Assembly: GCA_050951545.1 (NCBI GenBank)
Contig: JBMNJG010000016.1
Location: 32,001-96,000 of the forward strand
Direction of reading: 5' to 3'
Length of the DNA: 64,000 bases
Source of the DNA: Limnochordia bacterium
GTDB lineage: Bacteria > Bacillota > Limnochordia > DTU080
Below the pieces are notes generated by a model that was not told the origin of the DNA, searched no databases, and saw only the letters and a program-made list of their open reading frames with translations. Positions 6,327 to 50,378 of this stretch are shown piece after piece. How positions within the stretch are numbered: the first letter of the stretch is position 1; each line of letters starts with the position of its first letter. The translations under genes were made by a program, and so were the position numbers.

Positions 6327-6894
6327 GGCGAGCTACTCTCCCGCGCCTTCAGCTGGCCTTTGCTTCGCAAAGTCTCAGCTGTGGCACCGGTTGCCCAGGG
6401 GCAACCCTGTGAGCTCCAGCAAAAGCAAACGTCCCGCACTTGGCGGGACGTCTAAGGGTTTTGCCGGCGGCGAGCTACTCTCCCGCGCCTTCAGCTGGCC
6501 TTTGCTGCGCAAAGTCTCAGCTGTGGCACCGGTTGCCCAGGGGCAACCCTGTGAGCTCCAGCAAAAGCAAACGTCCCGCACTTGGCGGGACGTCTAAGGG
6601 TTTTGCCGGCGGCGAGCTACTCTCCCGCGCCTTCAGCTGGCCTTTGCTGCGCAAAGTCTCAGCTGTGGCACCGGTTGCCCAGGGGCAACCCTGTGAGCTC
6701 CAGCAAAAGCAAACGTCCCGCACTTGGCGGGACGTCTAAGGGTTTTGCCGGCGGCGAGCTACTCTCCCGCGCCTTCAGCTGGCCTTTGCTTCGCAAAGTC
6801 TCAGCTGTGGCACCGGTTGCCCAGGGGCAACCCTGTGAGCTCCAGCAAAAGCAAACGTCCCGCACTTGGCGGGACGTCTAAGGGTTTTGCCGGC
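6327..6894 (-). repeat. Four 142-bp tandem repeats downstream of 5S rRNA, each with a terminator and a copy of the 5S 3' end
   Basis: Units start at 6327, 6469, 6611 and 6753; the real 5S segment continues the register at 6895. Units differ only in TTCGC vs TGCGC in one hairpin loop. Confidence 0.97.
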
Positions 6895-7005
6895 GGCGAG
6901 CTACTCTCCCACAGGGTTGCCCCTGCAGTACCATCACCGCTGGAGGGCTTAACTGCCGTGTTCGGGATGGGAACGGGTGGGTCCCCTCCGCCATTGCCAC
7001 CGACA
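6888..7005 (-). rRNA. rrf: 5S rRNA
   Basis: Reverse complement contains CCCGTTCCCATCCCGAACACGG..GTTAAG..GATGGTACTG..GGGAGAGTAG. Confidence 0.96.
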
Positions 7006-45176: not shown

Positions 45177-45563
45177 GTACCCACTCCCTACCCGCACGGC
45201 TAAACCAACACTTGCATTATACTTGCGTCAACGAGCTATCACAACCCAAAAACCCAGAAAGCACCTCTGCCAACAACACCCAGGGGTTGAAAGACACGAT
45301 CGTCACACGGCGAAAGGCCCGTCATACAAGAGTGTCATCGGCTTTGGCACCGCTGATTTGTGGAAGACGCACACGCGAAACGGCGAGCCCTATCCCTACT
45401 TCTGGCTCAGTGTGGTGGCACTCACCACTTGCTGCCTGACCGAGATCTCCAGCGCACATGCGTCATGTAAGCCTCAAGACCATCACAGGCAAGGAACGCA
45501 GGCAAACACTGATGCAGCTGATAACAGAAACGCCCGGAACGTATGTTCCGAGCGCTTGCTACG

Positions 45564-45639
45564 TGGTGCGCCCAGCAGGACTCGAACCTGCGCACCCGGC
45601 TCCGGAGGCCGGTGCTCTAATCCGCTGAGCTATGGGCGC
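45564..45639 (-). tRNA. tRNA-Arg(CCG)
   Basis: Reverse complement GCGCCCATAGCTCAGCGGATTAGAGC...CTCCGGA...GGTTCGAGTCC...GGGCGCACCA. Confidence 0.96.
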
Positions 45640-45912
45640 CTATCTTTACCTCCGCATTATAGCAGAGAGCCGGGCAGCCTGCAACCCAAACTCCGATGGC
45701 GAGTGCATACGGAAGTCGCGGTGAACGGGTGTTCTCACGGCTGCTACGCCGCCTTTCCACGCACCCAACAGATTCAGTTCGACTGTGACTGGGATTCCAA
45801 CTGCGCCCTTCCCACCTGCTAGCGTCTTCAACAATCGTGATCAGTTGGGTCGGGGTAGGGCCGCGCTAACCCGTCGTGGGTCGATGCCCAGGCTCGTCGT
45901 GGGCGGTACACA

Positions 45913-46236
45913 GGTCGGTTACATCGCCTGATTTGGCAAGAAACGGGCGATGCTCACTGGTTTCACTTCCGTCAGTCCCGGACCCGGGTGGTGAGTCGGG
46001 GCCCGGGGTCGGTTACATCGCCTGATTTGGCAAGAAACGGGCGATGCTCACTGGTTTCACTTCCGTCAGTCCCGGACCCGGGTGGTGAGTCGGGGCCCGG
46101 GGTCGGTTACATCGCCCGATTTGGCAAGAAGAGGGCGATCTCACTGGTTTCACTTCCGTCAGCCCCGGACCCGGGTGGTGAGTCGGGGCCCGGGGTCGGT
46201 TACATCGCCCGATTTGGCAAGAAGGGGGCGATGCTC
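45913..46236. repeat. Tandem array of 94-bp double-hairpin repeats (3 full + 1 partial)
   Basis: Units start at 45913, 46007, 46101 and 46194 (GGTCGGTTACATCGCCYGATTTGGCAAGAARSGGGCGAT...). Confidence 0.96.
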
Positions 46237-46522
46237 CAGTCTCATCTTCGATCACAGGGAGGCCGACCAGGCGACGGGGCGGGTTCTGGGCAAGGCAAGA
46301 TGGCTATTGAGCGGAACATTGTGATTTCGAGGCGGTTACAGCCGGTAGTGGGGCGCCCGTTGGCGCACCACTGGTCTGCTATTGTCACGACTTGTGCCGA
46401 GGGCACCGGGCGAGGGCATAGGGGCACCTGCTCTAGCGAGCGGCAGCGAGAGGTTGCTGAAACCCCTACTGTGAAGGGGGACAGATGATTCGAGGCGATG
46501 GCGCACTCTTGGCCGTCGTTGG

Positions 46523-47551
46523 CTATTCGCTGGCGGCATCACTGGTGGGCGCCCAGCCACCCTTAGCCGTCTCGCGGTAGAAGCGGCTCCTCAGATCGAG
46601 GTACCTGAGGAGTTTCTTGTTAAGGTCGCTTCGCAACGGCAGCAGTTGGCCAGCCTTGAACTTCATGGTGAGCCAGGACAGGTCCTTGGCATGGATCACA
46701 ACCAACGTGACGTTGTTCTTCTCACACAATTCACGCTTGGTCTTGTCACGTTCCATCTGCTTAGCCACCACGTCAGCCGAGAACCGTTTGGTAGGGGTGT
46801 AGTGTTGTGGCCCGTTAAACTCAAAAGCCACCGCCTCGAGGCCATAGTGGCGGTCGAGCTCCAGTAACATGCCAGTAGCCGGGTTGACGAGAAAACGGGG
46901 AGACGCGTTGTCTTTGTGGTCATCGGAGTCGAAAATAGCCGATAGGTATTCCTGCATCAAGGCCTGTCCGAAGAACTCAGCCTCGTCGAGTCGCTGCTGC
47001 GCCGCTAGCAGTTCATCCATGTACCTGCGGGCGACCGGGTTGCAGAGGCTGAAGCAAATGGGAGCCTGCTTGTGCTCTTGCTGCATCTCCAGCCAGCCCA
47101 GCTTCGCCAGTTGTCGAGCAGCCCGCTTGACCGTCTTGGCGTCTAGACTCATCATCCGGGACACAGATGCATATGTGAACACGCCCTGCAAATTACGGTA
47201 ATCGGGCGTGGCCTGCAGTGCACCATAGACCACCTTGGCCTGAGCACTGACCTCCGTGGCGATGATCAGCTCAGTAGGCATAACCACCCTTGGCCCCGAC
47301 AGCTCTTTTGCTGGGGCCTGGTTGACGCCTGTGGGCAGATTGTACCAGCCCTCAGTGGTTAGCTTTGCCGTAGCCTTGCGGACGGTGGGTCGGGACAAAC
47401 CGGTACGAGCAGCCAAGCGAGTGGGCGACAGACGAGCTCGCTCCCCCAACTCAGCGTCGAGTGTGAGGGCCAGCCAAACTACCTTATCCGTCGCTCTTAA
47501 CTGGCTAGTGAGCAGCAACGAGATCGGCACGCGAACCTCTTCGATATCCAA
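46523..47551 (-). CDS. Tandem winged-helix + PD-(D/E)xK (Vsr/DUF559-like) nuclease-domain protein
   Basis: Two homologous HTH blocks ending L...GW; C-terminal FLVNPATGMLLELDRHY..VAFEFNGPQHY..QMERDKTKRELC. TTG start chosen after GGAGGTG (the ORF track starts at 47626). Confidence 0.8.
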   Translation of the reverse strand: MDIEEVRVPISLLLTSQLRATDKVVWLALTLDAELGERARLSPTRLAARTGLSRPTVRKATAKLTTEGWYNLPTGVNQAPAKELSGPRVVMPTELIIATEVSAQAKVVYGALQATPDYRNLQGVFTYASVSRMMSLDAKTVKRAARQLAKLGWLEMQQEHKQAPICFSLCNPVARRYMDELLAAQQRLDEAEFFGQALMQEYLSAIFDSDDHKDNASPRFLVNPATGMLLELDRHYGLEAVAFEFNGPQHYTPTKRFSADVVAKQMERDKTKRELCEKNNVTLVVIHAKDLSWLTMKFKAGQLLPLRSDLNKKLLRYLDLRSRFYRETAKGGWAPTSDAASE

Positions 47552-47788
47552 GGGCGCCACCTCCAGCCAGAATGTCTGTTCGGTTCCCGAATAAATGTTC
47601 GACACACTCCGGTAGAGTTCCTCCATGAAAAGGTCGATTCAGACAAAACCAGAGGCGGCGTGCACCCAGCTCTTGAAAGCGAGGCGCGATGGCACGTTTT
47701 CCGGTCGTGATGGGGGCATCTGGGTAGAACAGTGCTAGCCCGCCGCGGTGACCAGTGCCGTCCTGCCAAAGCAGACCCGTGCACACAC

Positions 47789-47835
47789 CGGTTACATCAC
47801 CCAATTCGGCAAGAGACGGCCGATGCTTACCAGTT
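47789..47835. repeat. Solo degenerate copy of the array repeat, same orientation
   Basis: CGGTTACATCACCCAATTCGGCAAGAGACGGCCGATGCTTACCAGTT aligns without gaps to the array consensus; 39/47 identical by hand count. Confidence 0.88.
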
Positions 47836-47957
47836 CGACCGCCCCAAGCGGATATCAACGTGCAATAACAGCGGGGAAAGAAAGAGGACCATGGCTATTT
47901 CGCCAAGGCCGCCGCTGTGCCCTCCAAAGCCAGGCCGAGTATCCCGTAACCCTCACG

Positions 47958-48641
47958 CTAGCGATTGTCTTCACGTGTCTGTACGAGAAGCCTACCTGAG
48001 CTGTCTATGAGCGCCAGCAACACATCGCGAGCCTCAATGAAACCCTCTTCTGCTAACCGAGTGCGAAGCCATGCCTCATCCAAGTTTATGGCTCGCAATG
48101 CGCCGTAATCGATTTCGCCATCAATCACTAAGGTATGCGTCGGCCCCTCATACTCCGTTCGCAGACCAAGATCCGCTGGCGTAAGTGTGCGCCGCTGCGA
48201 TTTTGGCAGGACGGATAGCTCACCATCACATTCGAGAATTGCCATCTCCACGTCCATGAGGTTGTGATACCCTCGCACCCGCAACTGCTCCATGAGCTCG
48301 GTAATACCGTACCGCAATCTACGCATCTCATGGTGCACCAATCGCCCATCGCGCACGATTATCGAGGGCTTACCCGAGATCAGATGACGCACGGTTCTGC
48401 TAGCAAGGCATAAGCGTGAGAGCCCGATCTCCAGAGCAACCAAAGTGACTATAGGAACCACACCCAACATTAGGGGTCTTTGGGGATCTTCAATAGGTAT
48501 GGCTGCAGCTTCGGCCATGATAATGGCCACGACCAGATCCAGCGGACCCAGAGAGCCCAATCCTCGCTTCCCCATGGTCCGCAGTGTGATGAGCAGAAAG
48601 AAATAGAAGAAAACCGTACGGAGACAGGACGTAAGCAACAT
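47958..48641 (-). CDS. YetF/DUF421 membrane protein
   Basis: RTMGKR..L...DL, GKPSIIVRDG, LRVRG..AILECDGELSV and LVIDG motifs. Confidence 0.9.
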   Translation of the reverse strand: MLLTSCLRTVFFYFFLLITLRTMGKRGLGSLGPLDLVVAIIMAEAAAIPIEDPQRPLMLGVVPIVTLVALEIGLSRLCLASRTVRHLISGKPSIIVRDGRLVHHEMRRLRYGITELMEQLRVRGYHNLMDVEMAILECDGELSVLPKSQRRTLTPADLGLRTEYEGPTHTLVIDGEIDYGALRAINLDEAWLRTRLAEEGFIEARDVLLALIDSSGRLLVQTREDNR

Positions 48642-50217: not shown

Positions 50218-50293
50218 GCGGATGTAGCTCAGTTGGTAGAGCATCAGCTTCCCAAGCTGAGGGTCGCGGGTTCGAGACCCGTCATCCGCTCCA
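50218..50293 (+). tRNA. tRNA-Gly(CCC)
   Basis: GCGGATGTAGCTCAGTTGGTAGAGC...TTCCCAA...GGTTCGAGACC...CATCCGCTCCA; TTGATT-17-TATACT upstream. Confidence 0.96.
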
Positions 50294-50302
50294 TTGTTTT
50301 TG

Positions 50303-50378
50303 GCTAGTGTAGCTCAGCTGGCAGAGCGGCCGCCTCGTAAGCGGCAGGTCGAGGGTTCGAGTCCCTCCACTAGCTCCA
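50303..50378 (+). tRNA. tRNA-Thr(CGT)
   Basis: GCTAGTGTAGCTCAGCTGGCAGAGC...CTCGTAA...GGTTCGAGTCC...CACTAGCTCCA. Confidence 0.96.

Follow-up and report, generated by a model that had tools for sequence, protein, structure and literature searches.

At one locus of a Limnochordia genome, between a tRNA-Arg gene and a yetF-like gene, a single gene stands between a tandem array of 94-bp units and a solitary, diverged copy of part of such a unit. Is this arrangement a mobile element and, if so, by what means does it move? In the window (the whole stretch of 64,000 nucleotides that was analysed) an earlier note had proposed a selfish cassette of ~1.9 kb, in which a gene for a nuclease with two winged helix-turn-helix (wHTH) domains is bracketed by its own palindromic repeats. 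The array, the single gene and the solo repeat copy in the same orientation are all present (Tandem Repeats Finder, TRF; repeat search; alignment; ORF list). As the note had stated, no integrase or known transposase is encoded nearby, and the neighbours are ordinary genes (glycerate kinase, YetF/DUF421, solute-binding protein, EEP phosphatase and tRNA-Arg). The parts of the window copy and its surroundings are:

45564-45639, minus strand: tRNA-Arg(CCG) (ARAGORN)
45680-45685, minus strand: weak -35 box of a candidate tRNA-Arg promoter, 17 nt upstream of its TATAAT box (by eye)
45690-45912, no strand: left junction segment, at single-copy depth and missing from same-genus genomes
45913-46236, no strand: tandem array, 94-bp period, 3.5 units, 96% matches, score 592 (TRF)
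46237-46522, no strand: non-coding spacer between array and gene, conserved in the seven copies of the genome (blastn against the genome)
46523-47626, minus strand: the sole gene of the element, 367 aa from ATG (ORF list)
47627-47778, no strand: 5' region of the gene, variable in three of the seven copies (right-end alignment)
47779-47835, no strand: solo diverged copy of the first palindrome of the unit (hp1) with a short lead-in, in array orientation

Each 94-bp unit consists of a first imperfect palindrome (hp1, ~47 nt) and a second, GC-rich one. The array is located 3' of the nuclease gene, and the multicopy portion of the element begins with it. The first 57 nt of the unit occur in five in-register copies, four of them in the array and the fifth at 47779-47835 on the same strand with 77% identity (repeat search). 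In the core of this alignment (45916-45957 against 47789-47830) 35 of 42 positions are identical, with a score of 49 compared to a mean of 18 (sd 2) for shuffled sequences (local alignment). Since the similarity among the seven copies stops just past the solo copy, the latter marks where the multicopy unit ends on the right. To the left of the array, a 'pre-segment' in direct repeat that by eye convincingly resembled the lead-in of the solo copy was rejected as not significant (score 20, shuffle mean 17.7). The description of the repeats as palindromic needs a qualification: two imperfect inverted repeats are present per unit, the first with a 9-bp stem, but their folding energies do not go beyond those of shuffled sequences (z -1.06 and -0.34), and the stem of the solo copy is degenerate (z -0.18 and -1.32 against shuffles). 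A search of Rfam over 45400-48200 yielded the tRNA only, and the spacer 46237-46522 had no family match.

A start of the gene at TTG 47551, giving a protein of 343 aa, is equally plausible because most homologues start a few residues before a conserved V-x-V-P (by eye). The promoter of the gene is presumably located within 47627-47778; a promoter scan returned nothing in this region. The putative tRNA-Arg promoter fires away from the element and was missed by the scan since its -35 box matches in only three of six positions. The match to the same-genus genomes ends a few bases upstream of this -35 box. The adjoining segment 45690-45912 is shared (~83% identity) only with the copy at C5:217358-217734 and may be an extension of the left arm of the element or flanking DNA carried along with it.

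The repeat had been reported as confined to the element in the window, and within the contig (C16) the 94-bp unit indeed matches only the array itself. Across the genome the unit has 32 matches, 29 of them at seven loci, each beside one of seven copies of the gene; the remaining three are at chance level (E 3.6). The selfish cassette of ~1.9 kb that the note had envisaged is thus found as a unit of seven copies with 93-100% DNA identity, and array, gene and solo copy are present in every one. The gene copies are 96-100% identical, and the arrays comprise 2.1-4.6 units. DNA similarity between the copies extends from the array to just beyond the solo copy, where it breaks off sharply, and the flanks of the copies are unrelated. 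At its outer edge, the array begins at a differing phase of the unit from copy to copy. The nuclease gene is kept under purifying selection (dN/dS = 0.22 in ten pairs of five intact copies). A terminal inverted repeat was not found in this family, and only one of the seven copies carries an inverted solo copy. Candidate 9-bp duplications are present in three of the seven, at variable distance outside the repeats, and in none of 42 mismatched control pairs.

In two congeneric genomes the interval between tRNA-Arg and the yetF-like gene is empty, without gene or repeat, and so provides the empty site whose existence in relatives the note had made a check of its proposal. The unmatched stretch at the window locus is 2292 nt in this genome (G000) and 78 nt in G001. 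The empty sites of G001 and G002 do not give base-exact junctions for the window copy because the intergenic DNA has diverged, the flanks being only 71-85% identical. Contigs of two metagenomes change from a depth of ~18-21 in the flanks to 60-325 within the element, with the rise at ~45906, and contigs of other metagenomes break or shift depth at 47817-47837. The contig of one run carries a variant in array length. Joints indicative of excision, of circles or of empty sites were not seen in the contigs of four public runs, a result that says nothing about their absence. The organism occurs in bioreactor, digester and landfill samples, and 13 runs contain at least half of the sequence words. 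Contigs of an RNA library cover parts of the element, with DNA carry-over as a possible source.

The genome contains 28 gene loci of homologues: the seven of the window family (family 1) and 21 further loci at ~50% identity, which form sister families with their own arrays. The expectation that homologues be multicopy and accompanied by cognate repeats was therefore borne out, with periods of 94, ~405 or 255-262 bp according to subfamily. Family 2a comprises 15 gene loci, and 13 of the 14 arrays with a period of 403-415 bp (~405 bp) adjoin a family-2a gene. The arrays of family 2b have a period of 255-262 bp. They are homologous to those of 2a, yet the two lie on opposite sides of the gene, an arrangement resembling circular permutation. 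The one sense ORF in the family-2a elements encodes 359 aa, and further long ORFs are lacking. Its ends are defined and weakly inverted, matching in 14 of 22 positions (by eye). Seven family-2a elements retain both ends; 9-bp duplications are perfect in five of these, match in eight of nine positions in one and are lacking in one. At a family-2a locus on C11, which is empty in both same-genus genomes, 3304 unmatched nt in this genome stand against 245 nt in a same-genus genome, the element accounting for 3027 + 9 bp, and the empty site has no repeat. The locus on C4, likewise empty in both (3094 nt in G000, 139 nt in a same-genus genome), provides no exact ends as the G000-specific stretch exceeds the element by ~1 kb. 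An 800-bp repeat beside some of the arrays was identified as an unrelated fragment of the IS21 family; such fragments are inserted in arrays. The exact left-end 12-mer of family 2a occurs, reversed, at the left edge of the family-1 copy C5b.

A multicopy unit with constant boundaries in unrelated flanks, a hallmark of an insertion sequence (IS), is thus found both in the seven window-family copies and in the 15 family-2a gene loci, and the defined ends and 9-bp target duplications of the sister family point to transposition. Accordingly, at roughly even odds (probability about 0.5), we regard the feature in the window as an IS-like transposon that moves autonomously and encodes one protein only, a nuclease from a class in which transposases are not known.

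The same ends would also fit a non-autonomous cassette moved in trans by an unlinked transposase, with the wHTH-wHTH-nuclease as a passenger that may serve as regulator, as addiction or exclusion nuclease or as guard of the repeats. Duplications of 9 bp and short imperfect terminal inverted repeats, such as those of family 2a, are typical of DDE transposition, and other IS elements, for example the IS21-family fragments, are present in the genome. The nuclease fold is also without precedent as sole transposase; to our knowledge, no PD-(D/E)xK nuclease transposes alone. Partners with different cargo were not detected among the matches inspected: searches with the 60-nt ends returned 14 matches for the left end and 11 for the right, all of them mapped family-2a elements or array remnants (blastn-short), and among 63 matches to the end 12-mers at up to one mismatch those with the longer end motif were copies of 2a or 2b. 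Moreover, there are at least four subfamilies that differ in ends and arrays, and a helper would be required for each of them. The putative passenger gene is the sole long ORF, and all subfamily copies that were tested show purifying selection on it. Transposition in trans is therefore unlikely, and autonomous transposition by the encoded protein is retained as the preferred reading.

The protein consists of a first wHTH (residues ~30-95), a second wHTH (~113-195) and, beyond a helical linker, a Vsr-like PD-(D/E)xK nuclease domain (~219-355). Structure models and fold searches thus back the two wHTH domains and the PD-(D/E)xK nuclease that the earlier note had read from the translation. The AF2 model reached a pLDDT of 87 at full length and of 95 for the C-terminal domain modelled separately (residues 200-367). 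Pfam matched the protein to HTH_36 (2e-7). Pfam and NCBIfam gave only HTH families, without any of the DDE, DEDD, HUH, serine, tyrosine and Cas1 classes, and the IS21 model matched only the HTH region (E 0.013). Sequence searches of the PDB, run with the protein as well as with the family profile, retrieved HTH regulators only, and neither of the two models had a Foldseek match at E up to 1e-3. The anti-phage defence models of PADLOC matched no family at E up to 0.01. Searched by itself, the C-terminal domain matched none of the Pfam families Vsr, DUF559 and DUF2726 at E up to 10; DUF2726 matched four of ten relatives, but only at E 0.004-0.11, below threshold, and an Atlas lead to DUF559 scored 0.83, under the reliable range of the Atlas.

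The N-terminal half has the tandem winged helices characteristic of iteron-binding Rep initiators. Residues 28-195 superpose on the pi initiator bound to iteron DNA (2nra_C: Z 8.3, rmsd 3.9, 159 aligned), and the match to RepE54 has a probability of 0.98-0.99 with a TM score of 0.43-0.44 on the target. For residues 114-186 the best PHROG matches are replication initiation proteins (1.9e-9). The dismissal of a likeness to Rep initiators was hence premature, as pi and RepE are the closest structural matches of the tandem wHTH module. The resemblance raises the possibility of a Rep-iteron module, in which the protein would be a replication initiator and the arrays would be iterons, or an origin together with an array for copy control like that of P1 or F plasmids. 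The element would then be a minimal integrating replicon in which the nuclease acts in excision, integration or replication nicking. The direct repeats that flank the gene, including a copy upstream of it as is known for autoregulated rep genes, would suit such a module, as would the arrays of 18-42-bp repeats that adjoin homologues in other species and the position of the 2a and 2b arrays on opposite sides of the gene. Against a replicon stand the lack of any match in a plasmid collection of 72,556 records and of a Pfam Rep_3 match, the chromosomal location of all copies seen within host flanks, and the lack of circle joints in the contigs of the four runs. By eye, 46237-46522 shows no obvious AT-rich region for unwinding, and neither the 9-bp duplications nor the promoter targeting described below would be explained. 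We consider a replicon quite improbable.

The C-terminal domain shows the core fold of the Vsr-like branch of PD-(D/E)xK nucleases (helix, three or four strands, helix, strand). Its structural matches are Vsr (1cw0_A: Z 8.2, rmsd 2.7, 104 aligned), 3hrl_A (Z 7.7 over 86 residues), I-Bth0305I (3r3p_B, Z 7.2) and TnsA (Z 6.4). The VIA matches were headed by Vsr, NGO0050, I-Bth0305I, RAP domains and TnsA, and the best 50 consisted almost entirely of nucleases with the PD-(D/E)xK fold. A Z of 8 is reached by a single chain, so that the assignment depends on the agreement across the list. Residues D258, E269, G272, H275, Q290, R293, D294 and K297 are invariant in 40 sequences; among these, D258, E269, H275, D294 and K297 are candidate catalytic residues. 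In the alignment of the nuclease domain, D, E, G and H are invariant. At the sequence level, the domain is homologous to ORF194 of phage 0305phi8-36, annotated as homing nuclease (32% identity over 123 aa, E 5e-15).

This homology and the fold shared with I-Bth0305I would agree with the mode of spread favoured in the earlier note, a homing-type, non-RAYT REP-like element in which the nuclease cuts at or near its own repeat and homologous repair copies in the gene. The direct repeats to the left and right of the gene could act as homology arms, and array length varies among copies. Homing into repeats requires targets, though, and neither gene-less 94-bp arrays nor solo repeats occur elsewhere in the genome. 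The seven copies lie in unrelated flanks, the 9-bp duplications of the sister family are at non-homologous sites and the empty sites of the congeners are without repeat. Spread by cut-and-repair is thus not supported, leaving homing only a slim chance.

Beyond this genome, the gene is found in 14 of 41 related genomes, a patchy distribution that includes neither of the two genomes of the same genus. Tandem repeats are present within 800 bp of the gene at 43 of 75 loci in other species, with a repeat coverage of 6.3% near the gene against 2.1% further off. Few long arrays were detected by TRF in the 1.5-kb flanks of 20 related loci and of ten loci in genome G009. The latter share the gene alone at ~80% identity, and long repeats lie beside one of them (TRF). 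The protein has 2023 representative relatives, and public databases name the relatives HTH or ArsR regulators, or hypothetical proteins. That the locus belongs to an immobile family of host regulators with operator arrays, expanded by ordinary duplication, would accord with these regulator annotations and with the old, gene-only copies of G009, but is highly improbable in view of seven copies at 93-100% DNA identity with sharp boundaries and unrelated flanks, the empty sites of the congeners, the target duplications of the sister family and the patchy occurrence. These elements and their arrays account for ~30 loci of this 3.6-Mb genome, and with a transposon as the preferred reading the naming of their genes as HTH or ArsR regulators or hypothetical proteins would need correction. 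Literature searches found no description of such an element.

Family 2a inserts at a fixed distance of 16 nt from the -35 box of outward-firing promoters, upstream of this box. The motif TTGAC is located exactly 16 nt outside an end in seven of 25 flanks (P = 4e-16), and complete promoter-like sites occur in seven of the 25 flanks compared to 13 of 4000 random windows. In the flanks of family 1, a promoter-like site was present in only one of 14 under a strict rule. We know of no bacterial IS element that inserts at a fixed distance from promoter -35 boxes. For the choice of promoters, one winged helix may read a TTGAC-like core that is also part of the repeats of the element, or may sense bound RNA polymerase. 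If true, family 2a would offer one of the rare bacterial examples of integration directed to promoters, and the element could find use as a compact, protein-only, site-directed insertion tool.

We infer that the protein binds the repeats and cleaves near them. In the mechanism proposed for the transposon, the pair of wHTH domains would bind the repeats of its own element, which would be hp1 in the window family and short iteron-like subrepeats within the 405-bp units of family 2a. The array would load several protein molecules beside one end, while the solo copy upstream of the gene would mark the other end and may double as operator for autorepression. The nuclease domains would excise or nick the element and make a 9-bp staggered cut in the target, and joining could be accomplished by the same active site or by host repair. 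On this basis we tentatively propose, at somewhat less than an even chance, a new class of prokaryotic DNA transposons. Its sole protein would be a transposase combining Rep-initiator-like tandem wHTH domains with a Vsr-like PD-(D/E)xK nuclease, without a DDE, HUH, DEDD, serine, tyrosine or Cas1 enzyme, would load on long internal arrays, make 9-bp staggered target cuts and select DNA upstream of -35 boxes. Such a class, if true, would add a catalytic type to the handful used by well-studied bacterial transposons and would provide an evolutionary link among replication initiators, homing nucleases and transposons.

Among known systems, nucleases of the Vsr and DUF559 type (1cw0, 3hrl) are the best structural matches and share the helix-strands-helix-strand core; conserved acidic, histidine and lysine residues are present in the domain of the element. 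In contrast to Vsr, the domain of the element is fused to two wHTH domains and encoded in a multicopy mobile element rather than in a repair gene. I-Bth0305I carries a Vsr-like catalytic domain behind a separate DNA-binding part, as here (PMC3239194). ORF194 of the Bacillus phage 0305phi8-36 is a true sequence homologue of the nuclease domain. The motif of EDxHD homing endonucleases is absent from the protein, where the matching stretch reads E-F-N-G-P-Q-H, and the gene is free-standing in its own repeat-bearing unit, outside any intron or intein. The tandem winged helices superpose on those of pi of R6K and RepE of F, and direct repeats flank the gene of the element. Unlike pi and RepE, the protein has an additional nuclease domain, belongs outside Rep_3 and lacks plasmid relatives, and its copies are chromosomal and dispersed.

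TnsA of Tn7 is a PD-(D/E)xK nuclease of transposition, and matches the domain in fold (Z 6.4, Foldseek ranks 2-4). At the transposon ends TnsA cuts one strand only; it depends on the DDE transposase TnsB as well as on additional proteins, whereas the element encodes no second protein. With REP/RAYT systems the element shares palindromic repeats tied to one gene that is thought to act on them. It differs from these in lacking a HUH/Y1 transposase; its repeats are not scattered without the gene, and gene and repeats move as a unit. Insertion sequences are likewise small, multicopy and equipped with one ORF, and family 2a has the defined ends and fixed-length target duplications of such elements. 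Several subterminal transposase-binding repeats are found in Mu, Tn7 and the plant CACTA elements, to which the repeated internal sites near one end of the element are comparable. In contrast to these and to classical IS elements, the repeats are long tandem units of 94 to ~405 bp.

The tandem array, the nuclease gene and the solo repeat together form a mobile element. In the window (G000:C16:32001-96000), its parts and their surroundings are:

45690-45912: left junction segment of 220 nt, missing in the two same-genus genomes and at single-copy depth in other samples
45913-46236: tandem array, period 94, 3.5 copies, 96% matches (Tandem Repeats Finder)
46523-47626, minus strand: sole long ORF between array and solo repeat, 367 aa from ATG
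47779-47835, same strand as the array: solo fifth copy of the unit's first 57 nt, 77% identical (repeat search)
Neighbours: tRNA-Arg(CCG), glycerate kinase, a YetF/DUF421 protein and a solute-binding protein

A 42-nt core of array and solo repeat aligns with a score of 49 (shuffles: mean 18, sd 2). Together with the repeat searches and the ORF list, this upholds the earlier note's observation of a gene between an array and a solo copy of its repeat. The TTG start assigned there (47551) is as likely as the ATG, since most homologues start, by eye, a few residues ahead of a conserved V-x-V-P. Each 94-bp unit holds two imperfect inverted repeats, whose folding energy is not beyond that of shuffles. 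The centre of the first one occurs across the seven arrays in two reverse-complementary forms, with a 5-nt loop (AAATC or GATTT) between CC and GG; the second form, GATTT, is present in 7 of 27 array copies, including all four of the window, and the two forms look like loop inversion at a small hairpin. In copy C7 (G000:C7:34240-34653, G000 being the source genome), a 12-nt microsatellite has expanded within the second palindrome to as many as 5.6 copies and makes some units longer.

In the source genome, the 94-bp unit yielded 32 matches, 29 of them at seven loci and the remaining three at chance level, and the protein yielded 34 matching rows corresponding to 28 gene loci. In the window family (family 1), six gene copies are full-length, at 96-100% identity; the seventh, copy C6 (G000:C6:141662-142721), is in two pieces, its gene being broken into two frames. 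Each of the seven adjoins one of the seven 94-bp arrays, and no such array without the gene was found in this genome. The similarity between copies reaches from the array to just past the solo repeat (blastn), and thus the cassette of 45913-47835 outlined in the earlier note is exactly the unit repeated in the genome. The arrays comprise 2.1-4.6 units, and the phase of the unit at the outer array edge differs from copy to copy. The solo repeat is retained upstream of the gene in 7/7 copies, and the solos are closer to one another than to the array copies. The dN/dS ratio was 0.22 for 10 pairs of five intact copies, a set without copy C5a, which is matched from residue 2 onwards, and without the split copy C6.

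A further 19 full-length and two split copies share ~50% identity with the protein, besides three short fragments. They affiliate to three groups: family 2a with 15 gene loci, family 2b with four loci and arrays of 255-262 bp, and a third group of two copies with no evident array. Fourteen arrays have a period of 403-415 bp (two scored at double period), and 13 of them adjoin a 2a gene. A cognate repeat for each protein subfamily, as previously proposed, is hence borne out by the 94, 403-415 and 255-262-bp arrays. The 2a repeat unit is homologous to that of 2b (z 7.3); 2a genes have the array on their upstream side, 2b genes on their downstream side. Two of four IS21-family end fragments (96% identical; G000:C10:61404-62206, C14:1057-1860, C3:88559-89361 and C9:54579-55371) are inserted at 405-bp arrays. 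Family 2a also includes array remnants without a gene and one deletion derivative.

The genome holds other repeats. A second, unrelated array in the window (6327-6910; period 142, 4.1 copies, 99% matches) has its unit at four loci of the source genome, twice on C16 and once each on C3 and C11, with no homologue of the nuclease gene nearby. The genome-wide tandem-repeat scan also returned CRISPR arrays of two repeat types (G000:C16:153015-157743, C5:1458-3024, C6:153894-159109 and C9:15501-16945), and adjacent tRNA-Gly and tRNA-Thr genes (window 50218-50378) are alike enough to score as an 85-bp tandem repeat.

Two same-genus genomes (95% and 91% complete) contain no homologue of the protein, and the tRNA-Arg to yetF interval, where the earlier note proposed to look for an empty site, lacks the element in both: by matched coordinates the gap is 78 and ~154 nt, against 2292 unmatched nt in the source genome. 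Similarity at this locus ends a few bases upstream of the apparent tRNA-Arg promoter (identified by eye), which is kept in one relative, G001. At a 2a element on contig C11, G001 has 245 nt where the source genome has 3304 nt, the element accounting for 3027 bp + 9, and the adjoining host promoter is kept in both relatives. The locus of family-1 copy C4 measures 139 nt in a relative versus 3094 nt; this stretch is ~1 kb longer than the element, and the comparison does not define its ends. Left of copy C4, ~700 nt (G000:C4:94516-95218) are specific to the source genome and may represent cargo or a separate island. This segment carries a promoter-like site with strong -35 and -10, which begins at a distance of 13 nt from the edge of the array and is directed away from the array.

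The ends of 2a elements are sharp, the left opening with GGGGCCACGC and the right closing with GTGTGCACCC; in inverted orientation, 14 of their first 22 positions match by eye. Among the seven 2a elements with both ends (1881-4070 bp), a 9-bp direct duplication of the flank is perfect in five, matches at 8/9 positions in one and is missing in one. In 7/25 outward flanks, TTGAC lies exactly 16 nt outside the element end, a distance made up of the 9-bp duplication and 7 nt (P = 4e-16 at a background of 0.00098 per position), for example at C11:344415-347441 and C7:454878-458150, and complete outward-firing -35/-10 sites occur in 7/25 flanks versus 13/4000 random windows. As this family shows, integration entails a 9-bp stagger and a preference for promoter-upstream DNA. 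The 405-bp unit itself has a TTGAC in its first short subrepeat.

In family 1, the search for inverted ends found none. One of its seven copies, C6, has an inverted solo remnant ~150-200 nt left of the array (z 7.1), and the very left edge of copy C5b carries the exact 12-nt left-end motif of 2a in reversed orientation. The right and left flanks share an exact 9-mer in 3/7 copies versus 0/42 mismatched control pairs; its distances outside the repeats vary and the sequences just inside are unrelated. The 9-mer of the window (45775-45783 and 47827-47835) may be part of the element, because similarity to C5a extends through it; the segment 45690-45912 is common only to C5a (~83% identity).

The protein has matches in 14/41 related genomes including the source genome, several of them multicopy (18, 13, 9, 6 and 5 rows). 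The 75 loci in named public genomes derive mostly from MAGs labelled Symbiobacteriaceae, Limnochordia, Thermaerobacter, Fermentithermobacillaceae and Bacillota, a few being partial matches in other taxa. At 43/75 loci, tandem repeats (period of at least 15) are located no more than 800 bp from the gene, with a repeat coverage of 6.3% near the gene versus 2.1% further out; long arrays are not universal. Metagenome contigs from bioreactors, digesters, landfills and sludge contain the window stretch, and at least half of its words are present in 13 rows. In two metagenomes the element has a depth of 60-325 versus 18-21 for its flanks. Contigs from other samples bridge both junctions of the window insertion; no joints of excision, circles or empty sites were seen in contigs of four runs.

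In the simplest account, the element would be moved by its only protein; the 359-aa homologue is the sole sense ORF of at least 100 aa in a 2a element. The make-up of the protein suggests that the wHTH pair would read and bind the repeats and that the nuclease would cut. Less probably, the element could be a passenger mobilised in trans, a Rep-iteron mini-replicon or, as envisaged in the earlier note, a homing-type element. Our literature search found no description of such an element, and PADLOC gave no match to the protein.

Pfam assigns HTH_36 and HTH_24 to residues 43-94, with weaker wHTH matches at 148-193, and residues 114-186 match replication initiation proteins in PHROGs (1.9e-9). In the full-length AF2 model (pLDDT 87, pTM 0.82), both wHTH domains superpose on the iteron-DNA complex of the pi initiator (Z 8.3, rmsd 3.9), the only structure match among those listed whose aligned residues (159) span both; RepE54 also matches the pair. 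The protein had no match in the plasmid collection. For residues 266-313, the PHROGs matches (5e-8 to 7e-5) are to families that bear the names HNH, homing or intron-encoded endonuclease. The best phage relative, ORF194 of phage 0305phi8-36, is annotated as a homing nuclease (E 5e-15, with 32% identity over 123 aa).

At E <=1e-3, the C-terminal domain is related to 2023 representative sequences; it has no Pfam family, DUF2726 being sub-threshold only, in 4/10 relatives. Residues invariant in 40 homologues include D258, E269, G272, H275, Q290, R293, D294 and K297. Foldseek alone returned nothing significant for the model of this domain (pLDDT 95); nearly all of the top 50 fold matches are PD-(D/E)xK nucleases. 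The closest is Vsr (Z 8.2, rmsd 2.7, 104 aligned), followed by NGO0050 (Z 7.7) and the catalytic domain of I-Bth0305I (Z 7.2), and RAP domains and TnsA (Z 6.4) are also among the matches.
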